Of a stretch of DNA of 64,000 bases, positions 20,473-35,970 are shown in pieces. This stretch comes from a virus (taxonomy: Duplodnaviria; Heunggongvirae; Uroviricota; Caudoviricetes). A program made the position numbers and the translations under genes. Numbering within the stretch: position 1 is the first letter of the stretch; every line of letters begins with the position of its first letter. The notes under the pieces were generated by a model that made no database searches, was not told the origin of the DNA, and saw only the letters and a program-made list of their open reading frames with translations. The stretch lies in IMG/VR virus record IMGVR_UViG_2562617087_000024; one strand, written 5' to 3'.

Positions 20473-22917
20473 TTAAAAATCAGCCTGATTCGGGATCAGT
20501 TTTTGCCAGATAGCTGAAACGTATTTTGCCTGGTAACGAGCGTCATCCAGCGCATTGTGGCGCTCACCTTCGAATGGAATAGCCGTTCTGGCATCGAAGT
20601 CTATGGCTTTCCCCAGCTCAACGATTGTGCGTACATCGCGATCGTTGTAGTAACGCCACGGGCAGGGGATCCCCTGCCGTTCGTATGAACGGCGCAAAAT
20701 CGTGTTGTCGAAGTTGGCTCCATTTCCCCAGACCTGAACAAAAAATTCACCGGAGTTTTCGTCGATAAATTCCCGCAATTGTAACAGTGCATCATCTAAC
20801 GGGATTTCATCGGTCATAATGGCAGATTGCGCTTCGCGTGATTGCTTAAGCCACCATTTAATGGTGTCCCGATCAATGACTCCGCCAGCAGTTTCCAGAT
20901 CGATAGTCTTACTAAATTCCGGTCCCATATCTCCGGTTTGCGGATCGAAAAATATTGCACCTATTGAGATAATCGGGGCATCAGGATTTTTTCCCATGGT
21001 TTCAAGGTCGATCATTAGATGGTCACACGTCCTGCTGGTGGATGTGATAATGCGATGACCGTTCACCGTAATTAAGGGATCTGCCGTCTCGCCAGTTTCA
21101 CTATCGCTGGCGTGGTCCTGAGCGCTGCCAGCATTCTCCTTGTGTGGATGTTCAGCGCCTTCCATTTTCTCCGAATCGTCTTCCTGAACTTCAACCAGGT
21201 TCTTGTCATCGAATGTTTCCTGGTATGTTGCGTCGCCCATCACCGCGCCACAATCAGGGCAGTTGCCGCCACTCCTCTGACCGCAGGCGGTGCAGATCTT
21301 TTCCGGTTCCTGTTGCACTACTGGTTCAGGTTGTTTCGTTTCTGGCTCGTTTTGTTGCGTATTTGGGCTGTTCTGTTCCGCTTTCTGGTCGTTCTGTTCC
21401 GTTTCTGGCTGATTCTGGTACACAGAATCGCGGGTCTGGATCCCCTTAATCCATTTCGGATCATTCGGGTCGCTAATCCCTTCAACAAATTCTCCGCGAG
21501 AGGCAGCCAGTAATTTGTCTGCATCGACAGGATTTTGGGGCGGAATGTTTTTCCGGGCTTCATGGAGTTCTGCCCGCAGTTTCTGATATTTCGCATCAAC
21601 AGAATTTATCTGTGGCTGAGCATCCATCGACTGCGTGTCCTGATTATGTTCAGTTGTATCCGGTTCCACTGCTTCAGTCGTTGCCTGTTCATCTGCCATT
21701 GCGCCAGATGGCTGCGGTTTTTCTTCATCATCCTGTTTTCCTTCTTTTGTTACACGCTGCGGCATTGGAGCAGAGGAGCGACCGCAGGCAATATCCACGA
21801 TTTCTGGATCAGGGTTGGCATGGTCGGTTTCGGTCAGTACTTTGTTCAGATATTCGGTAACACGGTGGGGAGTAGCCTCGATACCAATTGGTGCTTCTTT
21901 CACGGACGCAACCACTATCGCGCGGGAATAATCCAGGTGACCAGGCATGGCGATGAATTTGTCACGAAAAACAGAAAAGGGCGGCTTATTCTCTGAAACG
22001 ATTTCTTCAATGCGTTTGGCGTGTGCCGGATGTGGATTGTAAATATCGATGTCCATTGAACGGGCCAGAACGCCAGCGGCAACGTCACGTTCTACTGACG
22101 CATCATCGTGGACAAAACCTTCACCGCGATCGGTAAGAATTCCTCCGCCAGCATTAGCGCCGGATGGCGTGCGGCTGATGCGTAAAACACGATTTCCTTT
22201 CATCCACTCTTTTGTCAGCAGACCTCGATCGGTATAGTCAGCGTCCAGGTATGCTTCGAAAAAAGCAGTCATTAACCCCAGACTGGAATTAACGGGATTA
22301 GGGAAAACTTTGTCTGTGTCGCGTACCAGTTTGTGAAGGTCGCGAATCTCCAGCGGGTCGAGCAGCTTTGTGTTGTGGGAAATAGCCAGGGCAGTAACAG
22401 CAGGCAGTTCTTCAGCTCGTGCGATATGTAATGCCTGAAGTTCTTCCCGTGAAACGTGCGTTACCGGTTTTTCGCTGCCATGTTGCGCAAGCCAGCGAAT
22501 GGGCAGTTCCTGACCGGAAATCGGCAGGAGCATATTATCCTCAATCTCAGCCATGTCTTCGCCATTGACGTTGGTATTGTCAGAGCTGGCTGGTTTGTCC
22601 TGAACTGAGGGGGAAGGCGCTATAAATATCATTGTGATGCCATCTTCCCCGCCTTTTTCATAGCGGTTGCAGAATTCAGTATCGAACACACCTTCAGGCG
22701 GCAGGTCATTAACAATGGGCAAATTCACGCGAACAGGTTTTTTGAAATCCTCTTCGTCAAATCCAGCATCGTCCATTGCGACAACACCCCGTGATATTGC
22801 AACCGATAATTTTTTTGCTGTGCGCCAGTAAAAACCGCCTTTAATCCCAAGGCGTTTTCTGACTTTGTCATTTTTGGCTTCGTAATACAGTGCAATTTCT
22901 TCTTTATCAGTGCTCAT
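20473..22917 (-). CDS. RecE-like exodeoxyribonuclease VIII family protein with C-terminal DnaQ-like (DEDD) 3'-5' exonuclease-type domain
   Basis: 814 aa; central region matches recalled RecE ([39 protein letters not shown]…); C-terminus has MIDLETMG…GANFD…[10 protein letters not shown] exonuclease motifs; Cys4 ribbon in between. Confidence 0.65.
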
Positions 22918-23009: not shown

Positions 23010-23198
23010 TTATCCAGCCGGTATTTCGTTATTCAGGTACAGCGATACTTTGTTTAACGGGAGACATTCACCGGAAATTTTTTGCTCGTCTCTTGCCTGA
23101 TGGCAGGATTCTTTACTGGCATAAATTCCGGTAATCACATTCTGTGGCTCACCTGTTATAAGAAAAACCGTCATCATCAGTGCAAACGCTGAACTCAC
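23010..23198 (-). CDS. small protein in ydfD position of dic operon (hypothetical)
   Basis: 62 aa ORF overlapping dicB stop; position as ydfD in Qin-type dic operon. Confidence 0.45.
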   Translation of the reverse strand: MSSAFALMMTVFLITGEPQNVITGIYASKESCHQARDEQKISGECLPLNKVSLYLNNEIPAG

Positions 23199-23383
23199 TG
23201 CTGCCCTCCGAAAATGCCAAGTTCAAGAAGGGCAATTCTGGAGAGTATGGAATTATCATTGAGAAGATAAGGCTCATATTTTCTCATCCTGATGGCGTCT
23301 TCAGTAAACTCCCGGTTACTGAGCAGAATACCAATATTAAAACACCCTTCAGACGTATTAACGTTTGGTAGTGACGTTTCCAT
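23195..23383 (-). CDS. dicB: cell division inhibitor DicB
   Basis: 62 aa, METSLPNVNTSEGCF…FTEDAI matches recalled K-12 DicB N-terminus. Confidence 0.85.
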   Translation of the reverse strand: METSLPNVNTSEGCFNIGILLSNREFTEDAIRMRKYEPYLLNDNSILSRIALLELGIFGGQQ

Positions 23384-23555
23384 TATCGCGTCCTCAACAA
23401 TGAATTTTGTGATGTGGTGCCTGGTGCCTCCAGGTGACGTTAACCAGTTAACAATTAACGCCGGAATACAGAATCACCCATAACGCTGTTTTTAGCTTTA
23501 ACTGTTCCGCGTGCGCTCAGCCGCATTCACCACATCACAAAATTCACTTTAAAAA

Positions 23556-23608
23556 GGGCGGCAGAGCAGTCACGGAGTAAAACTGATACCGCCAAACGTC
23601 ACCAGAAA
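23556..23608 (-). ncRNA. dicF: DicF small regulatory RNA
   Basis: Minus-strand sequence tttctggtgacgtttggcggtatcagttttactccgtgactgctctgccgccc identical to recalled 53-nt E. coli DicF, followed by T-run and flanking processing stem. Confidence 0.9.
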
Positions 23609-23948
23609 ATTGATAACAGAAGGCGTTGCAGCGGGGTTGTCACTTAAGCGTATGGTCAACCTGACAACCCGGTGTCCTCAACGGGGAAGAAATAACCCCG
23701 CCATACTTACCGCCGCACCATTTCGCGGGTTGCCACAACCGGAAGCGCACGGTCGACGAAAATTTAACGACAGGCTATCTATGAACCAGCTACCTCGCCG
23801 TGCGCTTTCGCGTTATGGTCTGACTTTTCAGGGAAATATCCTTTCAGTAAACTGTCAGTGCCGGATGCTCACCCGCGTCCGGCGCACGCACTCCACCTCA
23901 CCCGTGGAGAACTACTTAATTACCAACCTTAGCTTCGTTGGTTAGCTA

Positions 23949-24167
23949 TTAACGCGGGTATGTAATCATTCTGGCAATGCTTAATGCCGCTGCTTTTTCC
24001 AGATTGGTGATATCCTGCTCCAGAGCGGACAGTTTTTCAGCCTGCTTAGCCCTGGCTTCATTGGCCCATTTCAGATCCTGCGCTGCATTAATTTTCTGGC
24101 GCATCCACTCATAAAGTTCATCATCGGTATAGTCTGGTGCGATGATGACGGGTTCTCGTTTCTGCAT
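23949..24167 (-). CDS. YdfC-like protein of dic operon (hypothetical)
   Basis: 72 aa, coiled-coil; same size and position as ydfC upstream of dicF. Confidence 0.5.
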   Translation of the reverse strand: MQKREPVIIAPDYTDDELYEWMRQKINAAQDLKWANEARAKQAEKLSALEQDITNLEKAAALSIARMITYPR

Positions 24168-24196: not shown

Positions 24197-24325
24197 TCAG
24201 CCGTTAGATTTTGCCGAGCTGGAAAGCGCCTGTTTAAATTCGTTGAAGCTGAGAGCTTCTTCGCCGTCGGCAAGACCTTCGAAGTATTCTTCATAAGCCT
24301 TTTCCATGATTGTGTCGAAATCCAT
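24197..24325 (-). CDS. YdfB-like small protein (42 aa)
   Basis: Hand-translated MDFDTIMEKAYEEYFEGLADGEEALSFNEFKQALSSSAKSNG with aggtga RBS; below the ORF-track size cut-off. Confidence 0.4.
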   Translation of the reverse strand: MDFDTIMEKAYEEYFEGLADGEEALSFNEFKQALSSSAKSNG

Positions 24326-24326
24326 A

Positions 24327-24482
24327 TCACTCACCTGAGTTTCTTTCCAGCCAGCGACGGGCACCATTTTCGGTTTTAAACGTTTTGCTTTTGGTATACG
24401 TCATCGCGGTGAACGTGCCGTCCTGGTTGGGGAACACGCCACATACCAGAGATTCGCTGTTGCCAAGATCGATAGTATCCAT
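24327..24482 (-). CDS. YdfA-like small protein (51 aa)
   Basis: Internal Met of the 86-aa ORF gives a 51-aa product MDTIDLGNSES…; start site uncertain (ORF-track start is 24587). Confidence 0.4.
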   Translation of the reverse strand: MDTIDLGNSESLVCGVFPNQDGTFTAMTYTKSKTFKTENGARRWLERNSGE

Positions 24483-24671
24483 GCTGACCTCATTTCCCCT
24501 TAACGCCGGGTAGCGGAACTGTTTGCTGAGAACACCGTGCGGTGTCTTGATGGGTGGTAATTTAGTTTTCTCATGAATGTTGGTCAAGTATTTTTAATGA
24601 GAAAACTCAATATTTAATGCAAAATAAAGCCAATACATTGAAATGTAAGGCTTTAAAATTTGTGAAGGGGG

Positions 24672-25079: not shown

Positions 25080-25156
25080 ATTTAGATATCTTAATCACCC
25101 TTGACTTGAGATTCCTTGAGTGATTACTATTGAGAAAACTCAACTTTGGAGGGGTG

Positions 25157-25384
25157 ATGTTTAAATCAGACGTAATTAATTTTTATGGGACGAAAGCCAA
25201 AGTAGCGAAAGCTGCTGGTGTTGATCCATCTGCTGTTTCTCAATGGGGGGAACTGGTTCCTGAAGGTCGCGCGATGCGCCTGCAAGAGGCATCCGGCGGG
25301 GAACTTCAGTACGACCCCAAAGTTTATGACGAATATCGTAAGGCAAAGCGGGCGGGGCGGTTGAACAATGAAAATCACCCCTGA
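25157..25384 (+). CDS. dicC: Cro/DicC-like regulator
   Basis: 75 aa from MFKSDVINFYG…; …PEGRAMRLQEASGGELQYDPKVYDEYRK… as recalled for DicC; divergently transcribed from the repressor. Confidence 0.75.
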   Translation: MFKSDVINFYGTKAKVAKAAGVDPSAVSQWGELVPEGRAMRLQEASGGELQYDPKVYDEYRKAKRAGRLNNENHP

Positions 25385-30041: not shown

Positions 30042-30506
30042 TCTGGCCTGAAGCCTTTGCAATTACAGGCGTTGCTATAGCTATTGATTTTTTAGTATAT
30101 GTTATTTGTCGGTGGGGGTAAAAACGTTCGCCGGGATTCACACCAAAGGAGGGAATATGTCGGATGATATTTCACTGGCAATGGAAGGTGCGCTGGCTGT
30201 TATTGCTGTTGTGGGCGTTTACTGCCTGGTTGTGTTTTTGATGGATCGACTAGGGAACTGAATTCATTACGATATGGGAATTCCCATATCGGGTAAAAAC
30301 GGTTTGCGGTAAAGCGAGAGTTAAGTAGAATTGCTGCGGGTGCTTGAGGCTATCTGCCTCGGGCATGAACACCAACGGCAGATAGAGAAAAGCCCCAGTT
30401 AACATTACGCGTCCGGCAAGACGCTTAACATTAATCTGAGGCCATATCTATGCTCTACACACGTAGGTTAGCCTCTTACGTGCCGAAAGGCAAGGAGAAG
30501 CAGGCT

Positions 30507-30662
30507 ATGAAGCAGCAAAAGGCGATGCTAATCGCCCTGATCGTCATCTGTTTAACCGTCATAGTGACGGCACTGGTAACGAGGAAAGACCTCTGCGAGG
30601 TACGAATCCGAACCGGCCAGACGGAGGTCGCTGTCTTCACAGCTTACGAACCTGAGGAGTAA
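30507..30662 (+). CDS. Hok/Gef-family type I toxin
   Basis: 51 aa MKQQKAMLIALIVICLTVIVTALVTRKDLCEVRIRTGQTEVAVFTAYEPEE, closely matching recalled HokC/Gef; structured leader upstream and terminator 30720-30752. Confidence 0.8.
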   Translation: MKQQKAMLIALIVICLTVIVTALVTRKDLCEVRIRTGQTEVAVFTAYEPEE

Positions 30663-30879: not shown

Positions 30880-31140
30880 TTGATGAGAATCGAAGAATTA
30901 CGTGAAATTTTTAGTGAAGATGGCCTCTATACTGTGCGCGTTGAGAAGGGCGCTATTGTCAGCCACTGCCGTATTAAATGTTTACAGTCTCAACAAAGGA
31001 AGAGTGGAGCTGCGTTAATTCATTTTGTGGATGGGCTTGTGACGGATGGTTTTATTTTGCGTGCAAATGAATTTGTCACATCGTTGCCGTCTCTGAAAGA
31101 AGCTGGGATTAAGGCTGGTTTTTCTGCTTTTGAAGATTAG
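30880..31140 (+). CDS. hypothetical protein (86 aa)
   Basis: ORF, no family recognised. Confidence 0.4.
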   Translation: MMRIEELREIFSEDGLYTVRVEKGAIVSHCRIKCLQSQQRKSGAALIHFVDGLVTDGFILRANEFVTSLPSLKEAGIKAGFSAFED

Positions 31141-35417: not shown

Positions 35418-35493
35418 GGCCCTTTAGCTCAGTGGTGAGAGCGAGCGACGCATAATCGCCAGGTCGCTGGTTCGAATCCAGTACAACGCGCCA
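35418..35493 (+). pseudogene. degenerate tRNA-like sequence (ileZ-type tRNA-Ile2 remnant)
   Basis: ggccctttagctcagtggtgagagc…ggttcgaatcc has intact D- and T-arms but G at position 33 and a 3' acceptor strand that cannot pair with the 5' end. Confidence 0.5.
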
Positions 35494-35970
35494 CACTTAT
35501 TTTCCCTGGCTCGCTTTTGCGGGCCTTTTTTTAAATGTCTCACAATTCAGGCGGTTGACTGTTGTCTGGTTTGCGGGGAGTTTGTTAAAAGAAACTGGCA
35601 TGGTGAATCCCCCTGTGCGGAGGGGCAATCAGCAACCAGGTATATGTGATAATCGCGGATTCAGGTGCTGATACTGAATTCACCGGGAGGCACCCGGCAC
35701 CATGCAAGAAAAAGAATGTGCATGCAAACATGCCCCTCTCCGGAGGGGCTTTTTTATGGGTAAAAAATGCCCGAATGGGTTCGGGCAATAGCATGAGATA
35801 CTGATATTGTTGTGTTGTTATCGTGTGGATTTTAACCAGGGTTTATCAGGCTGCGCAACTGCGTGGCCTTTTTTCATTTCTTGGGCTGTAGTCCCCGTGT
35901 GTCATTCAGGCTTCCGGACTACAGCCCACTCCATATCTGATTTAATACACTATCCCGGCCGGGAGGAATA

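Follow-up and report, generated by a model that had tools for sequence, protein, structure and literature searches.

The closest described relatives of the locus analyzed here are the dicBF operons of the Qin prophage in Escherichia coli K-12 and of the prophages in E. coli O157:H7, which carry the genes for DicF, a small RNA (sRNA), and for the cell division inhibitor DicB. The 53-nt form of DicF receives its 5′ end from RNase E and its 3′ end from an intrinsic terminator (PMC5069750; PMC9438474), whereas the 3′ end of a 72-nt form is made by RNase III acting on the full-length mRNA (PMC5069750; PMC9438474, both citing Faubladier 1990), and the 5′ end of a 190-nt precursor is generated by RNase III at transcript positions 813/814 (PMC10448788). 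In experiments with K-12 and EHEC, DicF was found to repress ftsZ, manX, pykA, and xylR together with Hfq; in EHEC, it activates pchA, and through it the LEE, and represses stx2A (PMC7873438). In K-12, DicF builds up in stationary phase despite the repressor DicA, and the Qin protein Rem serves as an antirepressor of DicA (PMC10448788). The mechanism of DicB, via MinC, ZipA, and ManYZ, has also been published and was shown solely for the K-12 allele. Several dicBF copies have been published for Sakai and for the EDL933 prophages CP-933O, M, and P (PMC5069750), and four dicF copies, a figure taken from reviews, are given for EHEC along with the regulation of pchA and stx2A (PMC7873438). The presence of multiple dicBF copies in O157 prophages, the biogenesis and targets of DicF, and its role in EHEC are all in print already, and the copy described below adds no new biology to them.

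A comparable layout is known from phage lambda, whose PL operon with Kil is likewise a repressor-controlled early-left operon that places a small division inhibitor upstream of the exo/recombination genes, xis, and int, and whose early polycistronic RNA is likewise processed by RNase III. The dicBF operon is not known to be related in sequence to Kil or N, and its division block is exerted by an sRNA and a MinC-recruiting peptide.

We analyzed a stretch of 64,000 nucleotides of DNA, referred to here as the window, and found that the locus within it is, with a probability of about 0.93, a copy of this already well-studied prophage operon, located in a lambdoid prophage of E. coli O157:H7 and encoding DicF together with a diverged DicB. 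None of the observations spoke against this identification. A 2.5-kb query around the dicBF locus was 100% identical to E. coli O157:H7 strain TR01, in whose record PGAP names dicB, ydfB, and ydfC at the matching locus. The ends of the prophage are marked by two ompW 3′ fragments, one at window positions 18882-19007 (attL) and one just beyond the window end, giving an element of about 45 kb; ompW, also called yciD, is the integration site of the Sakai prophage Sp9 (PMC8190617). Because the copy is 100% identical to an O157:H7 chromosome and sits at the Sakai Sp9 site, we regard it as one of the O157:H7 dicBF set (EDL933 CP-933O/M/P; Sakai Sp), with no substantive difference from the other members. 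The dicBF operon is the early-left (PL-like) operon of this prophage at ompW. In the TR01 record, it is followed downstream by a gene for an 814-aa RecE-N/3′-5′ exonuclease, xis, and int, and to the right of the immunity switch lie a dicC-like gene, a ydaT-like gene, replication genes, hokD, a Q-type antiterminator gene, and the lysis, head, and tail genes. The initial annotation, which had called the module Qin-type, was thus right for the immunity and early-left region but not for the element as a whole, a lambdoid prophage of ~45 kb that is integrated at ompW and has complete sets of head and tail genes. The limits that it had given, 23195 and 23608, coincide exactly with the stop codon of dicB and the 5′ end of dicF. 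The protein-coding genes of the operon and its immunity switch are as follows.

23010..23198, minus strand: ydfD-like gene (DUF1482; Pfam PF07358, E = 1.8e-14)
23195..23383, minus strand: dicB, 62 aa, diverged allele of the MinC-dependent cell division inhibitor (PF05358, NF049927)
23949..24167, minus strand: ydfC, 71/72 aa identical to K-12 YdfC
24197..24325, minus strand: ydfB, 40/42 aa identical to K-12 YdfB
24327..24482, minus strand: ydfA (DUF1391), 49/51 aa identical to K-12 YdfA; Pfam PF07151
24672..25079, minus strand: dicA-like repressor gene, 135 aa (NF007257; Pfam HTH_3)
25157..25384, plus strand: dicC-like Cro gene, divergent from dicA (NF007282, 168 bits against a cut-off of 130; Pfam P22_Cro)

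Compared to K-12 Qin, the window has the same gene order and orientation: dicC, dicA, ydfA, ydfB, ydfC, dicF, dicB, and ydfD. The small ydfA/B/C-like frames proposed upstream of dicF were borne out, with DNA 95-98% identical to that of K-12. In the RNA-coding part, dicF is 100% identical between the two, the 340-nt leader is 96.8% identical with no gaps, and the dicF-dicB spacer is 94.9% identical at the DNA level. Both prophages also have the two RNase III stems and the terminator, as well as a Rem homologue and hokD elsewhere in the prophage. In contrast, dicB, ydfD, and dicA are different alleles (69%, 61%, and 57% DNA identity, respectively). The host elements differ as well, as a near-complete 45-kb lambdoid prophage at ompW carries the window copy whereas the Qin of K-12 is a 20-kb remnant, and the RecE-like gene is uninterrupted by IS2 in the window, unlike that in K-12 Qin. 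This gene corresponds to an 814-aa open reading frame (ORF) at 20473-22917 (minus strand) with an N-terminal RecE (Exonuc_VIII) region and a C-terminal Rv2179c-like 3′-5′ exoribonuclease domain; the ORF is open in the window, although PGAP calls the identical TR01 locus frameshifted.

The RNA elements encoded between ydfC and dicB are listed below in the direction of transcription.

23609..23948, minus strand: structured 340-nt ydfC-dicF leader, cut by RNase E at its 3′ end to form the 5′ end of DicF (K-12 identity, fold)
23733..23818, minus strand: long imperfect hairpin of 23 pairs holding the published upstream RNase III site (fold; site from PMC10448788)
23556..23608, minus strand: dicF, encoding the 53-nt DicF sRNA, in which the seed is single-stranded at the 5′ end and precedes the terminator hairpin (K-12 identity, Rfam RF00039)
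23551..23555, minus strand: T5 run of the Rho-independent terminator, which makes the 53-nt 3′ end (sequence; biogenesis from the literature)
23528..23548, minus strand: 5′ arm of the downstream stem, containing ~23537, the 3′ end of 72-nt DicF (repeat search, fold)
23399..23419, minus strand: 3′ arm of the downstream stem, ending 16 nt before the dicB start codon

The minus-strand sequence at 23556-23608, TTTCTGGTGACGTTTGGCGGTATCAGTTTTACTCCGTGACTGCTCTGCCGCCC, matches dicF of E. coli K-12 MG1655 (b1574) at 53 of 53 bases, the 5′ seed included, so that the exact DicF sequence named in the initial annotation stands without a single mismatch. It is the sole exact copy within the 64-kb window, and chance cannot explain the match. 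The Rfam search that had been suggested as a check returned RF00039 with a score of 76.7 bits, well over the family's gathering score of 48 bits (E = 3.6e-15), and with a full-length match covering model positions 1-52 and no noncanonical pairs flagged. The setting is also that of the family, with ydfC-type genes upstream and a U-run and a long RNase III stem afterward; the T-run noted earlier is present as TTTTT directly after dicF. The terminator hairpin has 7+4 bp, to which RNAfold adds one further U·G pair, with a free energy of −15.9 kcal/mol. This structure was taken from Rfam and RNAfold; a simple scan for terminators missed it, as its loop and bulge exceed the scan rules. Because the RNA is identical, the function of DicF can be carried over from K-12 without reservation: production of a ~53-nt species by RNase E and termination, binding to Hfq, and repression of ftsZ should all transfer directly from K-12 and EHEC to the window DicF. 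Among 5,426 complete E. coli genomes, 3,969 contained a 73-nt query comprising dicF and its immediate flanks, in as many as 7 copies in a single genome.

The inverted repeat proposed between dicF and dicB is real and is one nucleotide longer per arm than first described, pairing 23401-23419 with 23528-23546 (19 nt, 100% complementary). In the RNA fold, it extends to a 21-bp stem, 23399-23419 with 23528-23548, which is perfectly Watson-Crick in the window and contains two G·U pairs in K-12. When 72 nt are counted from 23608, the end falls at 23537, inside the 5′ arm of this stem, so that the reading of the repeat as a downstream processing stem agrees with the 72-nt DicF of the literature, which owes its 3′ end to RNase III. 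The second published RNase III site, upstream of dicF, had gone unmentioned in the initial annotation. A precursor of 190 nt sharing the 3′ end of DicF would begin at ~23740-23745, and counting 813 nt from the predicted transcription start leads to ~23739; both estimates of the precursor 5′ end (~23739-23745) lie in the 3′ arm of the 23-pair hairpin at 23733-23818. As the published RNase III cuts thus land in long predicted helices, the earlier reading of the downstream stem is correct.

The fold of the 340-nt leader has a z-score of −2.3. A new structured RNA or a put-like antiterminator in this leader was considered and rejected, given a z-score of only −2.3 and an RNAalifold covariation term of about 0 (−0.05). 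Rfam run in E-value mode over the 340-nt leader gave no match, and the main leader hairpin needs no new RNA because the published RNase III site already explains it. On the opposite strand, PGAP places a 54-aa hypothetical protein, WP_001302137.1, at 23781-23945 (plus strand), antisense to the ydfC-dicF leader. This ORF is doubtful because most of it overlaps the leader segment for which other loci carry a replacement, and it is probably not a gene. On the TR01 record, PGAP leaves dicF without annotation, with no features under the match. The main value of the present analysis is therefore a correct annotation, since PGAP omits dicF and puts a doubtful antisense ORF in its leader.

Conservation of these elements was examined in a set of 120 dicF loci on viral contigs, most of which are prophages of E. 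coli and Shigella, and in 8 loci that a strict dicF pattern scan returned from genomes. For the stem analysis, 60 distinct dicF-to-dicB regions were aligned; because the loci are closely related, the power to detect covariation was low. In this set, 99.3% of the cells of the downstream stem were paired. One pair of the stem is C-G in 43 loci, U·G in 13, and U-A in 3, which amounts to one compensatory pair, and at the adjoining pair G-C and G·U alternate. The stem is also kept in five loci with a gene other than dicB downstream (L009, L035, L037, L057, and L103). Shuffle controls were weakly exceeded in these closely related sequences, and for the whole structure the number of pairs changed on both sides did not exceed the control, as 157 of 500 shuffles reached the observed value. 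Conservation of the downstream stem is hence supporting evidence, short of proof.

Among 97 distinct leaders, conservation was 0.9-1.0 from ~23760 to dicF, and upstream of ~23820 other loci carry a replacement sequence. In 37 diverse loci, the hairpin with the upstream RNase III site has a constant basal stem and a variable apex. Judged by these alignments, the conserved unit is a ~420-nt RNA-processing cassette (~23399-23820), shared by approximately 100 distinct loci (L004-L131), which begins with the upstream RNase III hairpin, continues through the leader, DicF, and its terminator, and closes with the downstream stem. Its flanking genes are exchanged among loci, with ydfC or others upstream and dicB or others downstream.

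Another predicted helix joins DicF to dicB. Nucleotides 5-15 of DicF are complementary to dicB codons 2-5 over 11 bp, a complementarity found as inverted repeat I2, and in the 263-nt precursor it yields the helix that closes the minimum-free-energy fold (z = −5.4). All 11 pairs are Watson-Crick in the O157-type allele, and the K-12 allele keeps all of them through three G·U wobbles. DicF might by this pairing regulate its own operon, in cis within the read-through RNA or in trans, limiting DicB translation. We consider such self-regulation unlikely: none of the pairs shows a compensatory change across the 60 distinct loci, the central pair 12-253 is broken in 13 of the 60, including by DicF G12A and G12U without a matching change in dicB, and the DicF seed is unchanged at loci where another gene replaces dicB. 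In the published literature examined, no report of DicF-dicB self-regulation was found.

The DicB assignment is well supported at the family level. The 62-aa product matched Pfam PF05358 over residues 1-62 of 62 with an E-value of 7e-34 (115.7 bits against a cut-off of 27), as expected from the claim that the gene after dicF is dicB, and scored barely above the cut-off for NCBIfam NF049927 (102.2 against 100 bits). Its context fits the family as well, with a protein of about 62 aa encoded immediately downstream of dicF and overlapping a ydfD-type gene. A Shine-Dalgarno sequence, GAGGA, is located 8 nt before the ATG, between the 3′ arm of the downstream stem and the start codon, and at the other end of the gene the GTG start of the ydfD-like gene overlaps the dicB stop codon in the junction GCAGTGAG. 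The product of the ydfD-like gene is identical to K-12 YdfD at 28 of 63 residues (44%).

Compared to K-12 DicB, the window protein is identical at 36 of 62 residues (58%), and the differences are unevenly placed. A mosaic joint lies within dicB, as 48 of the first 54 nt and 37 of the last 81 nt are identical to K-12. This pattern marks the N-terminal half of DicB as conserved and the C-terminal half as a different allele. The initial annotation had stated that DicB blocks septation; for an allele 58% identical to K-12 with a diverged C-terminal half, family membership leads us to infer the same activity. By extrapolation from the K-12 allele, the window DicB may also bind MinC, need ZipA, and block ManYZ-dependent phage entry. 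Two more specific proposals, (a) that the fully Watson-Crick seed pairing lets DicF throttle its own toxin and (b) that the diverged C-terminal half gives DicB a different partner or phage-exclusion specificity, seem to us improbable. As toxic division inhibitors, DicB and DicF make it useful to map the prophages with intact copies and the dicB allele that each carries.

Upstream of the operon, the DicA-like repressor gene that had been proposed to control it is present, with its product scoring 238 bits against a cut-off of 101 for NF007257. By Pfam, the protein has an HTH domain only, with no match to the S24 peptidase family, and it is identical to K-12 DicA at 74 of 137 positions (54%). 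Together with the dicC-like gene, it forms a divergent HTH repressor/Cro pair upstream of the operon, which is the K-12 arrangement, with both members above their family cut-offs. The immunity specificity is probably different from that of K-12 Qin. The candidate control elements are listed below.

24559..24587, minus strand: candidate dicB promoter (PL analogue) upstream of ydfA, TTGACC, 17-nt spacer, TAAATT (consensus scan, 9/12 matches)
24562..24609, unstranded: two operator-like sites bracketing the candidate dicB promoter, with TGAGAAAACTCA exact at 24598-24609 and with 1 mismatch at 24562-24573 (minus strand)
25131..25142, plus strand: third operator-like site, TGAGAAAACTCA exact, immediately after the candidate dicC promoter, whose −10 element ends at 25130
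30880..31140, plus strand: Rem-like gene, 86 aa (73% identical to K-12 Rem, E = 2e-40), whose product is a candidate antirepressor for the DicA-like protein

The candidate dicC promoter, TTGACT-18-TACTAT, faces the dicC-like gene. The 12-nt quasi-palindrome TGAGAAAACTCA occurs with no more than one mismatch only at 24562, 24598, and 25131 within the 64-kb window, and these sites are predicted to be the operators of the DicA-like repressor. Control of dicBF by this repressor is a well-motivated prediction from the operator-like motifs and the Rem-like gene. The latter adjoins hokD, and its presence suggests that the route of derepression from Rem to DicA also exists in the O157 prophage. In the same early-right region, a type I toxin-antitoxin pair was observed, consisting of a sok RNA (RF01794, 111.7 bits) at 30338-30512 and hokD at 30507-30662, both on the plus strand.

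A working model can be drawn from these elements, in which the window contributes sequence identity, anatomy, family membership, stem conservation, and operator-like motifs, and experiments in K-12 and EHEC supply the processing enzymes, the targets, and the DicB mechanism. A repressor of the DicA family would keep the operon off in the lysogen by binding to operators of the TGAGAAAACTCA type, both at the dicB promoter and at the dicA/dicC switch. The operon would be turned on by a Rem-like antirepressor or when the DicA/DicC switch flips stochastically. Transcription would then pass through ydfA, ydfB, and ydfC into the structured 340-nt leader, where cleavage of the long hairpin by RNase III would give the 5′ end of the 190-nt precursor; RNase E would trim this precursor to the DicF 5′ end, and the intrinsic terminator would complete the 53-nt DicF. 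Transcripts reading through the terminator would go on into dicB and the ydfD-like gene, and an RNase III cut in the 21-bp stem of this RNA would release the 72-nt DicF, parted from the dicB mRNA. With Hfq, DicF would repress ftsZ, manX, pykA, and xylR and, in EHEC, activate pchA and, through it, the LEE. DicB would bring MinC to ZipA at midcell, so that Z-ring formation is blocked, and would also block ManYZ-dependent entry of phage DNA. In EHEC, DicF couples oxygen limitation to LEE and Stx2 expression.

That the locus is instead a decayed and silent remnant, its sequence conserved through recent descent but the copy unexpressed or dicB nonfunctional so that it adds nothing beyond the other dicF copies in the genome, is very improbable. 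In favor of this view, an intact repressor gene leads one to expect the operon to be off in most cells, as it is in K-12 (PMC10448788), DicB is diverged, and in TR01 PGAP marks a frameshift in the exonuclease gene downstream. Against it, the seven small ORFs are all open and retain their start codons and Shine-Dalgarno sequences; the overlapping stop and start of dicB and ydfD are kept; the promoter-like hexamers, operator-like sites, terminator, and both RNase III stems are intact; the prophage retains int and xis as well as its genes for replication, lysis, heads, and tails; in K-12, stationary-phase cells accumulate DicF even though DicA is present (PMC10448788); and the 814-aa exonuclease frame is open in the window.

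The description of this prophage as effector-associated held for one gene within the att bounds, which encodes an OspG-family effector kinase and is located downstream of the tail-fibre genes:

62862..63452: OspG-family effector kinase gene

Most of the type III secretion system (T3SS) effectors lie beyond attL, outside the prophage; these are the NleA, NleH1-2, NleF, EspM1, and NleG genes at window positions ~4.8-17.8 kb. They sit, within positions 1-18880, among IS elements, an integrase pseudogene, and tail-fibre fragments. Most effectors are accordingly cargo of an adjoining remnant, and the term effector-associated is a fair one.

Two groups of loci in the survey deserve mention. In a Salmonella enterica locus (L006:3429-3696), the DicF terminator hairpin is kept, the 5′ region is unrelated (GTGAGAGTTGGG...), and the flanks are different; the locus resembles a DicF-like scaffold in which the seed has been exchanged. 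In addition, E. coli-type dicF loci were found in metagenome-assembled genomes labelled Veillonella parvula (L008) and Collinsella sp. (L010), i.e., in Firmicutes and Actinobacteria bins, which most likely reflects binning contamination rather than transfer.

The late region of the prophage contains a tRNA at 35424-35483, a full STnc100 sRNA (RF02076, 149.9 bits) at 35569-35761 (plus strand), and, abutting the latter on the opposite strand, the anti-GcvB sRNA AgvB (RF02702, 96.5 bits) at 35762-35823 (minus strand). The dicF-dicB spacer at 23351-23558 (minus strand) scores 39.8 bits (E = 1.4e-6) against this Rfam STnc100 family, below its gathering score of 47 bits, and is not filed as a member. 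The spacer, which includes the RNase III stem, and the full copy, which lies in the late region by AgvB and not by dicF, share the core TGGTGAAT ... TCACCnGGAGGCACCnGGCACCA, with an alignment score about 6.5 sd above shuffles, and both form long-range stems around small hairpins. This likeness may point to a recurrent phage RNA-processing module.
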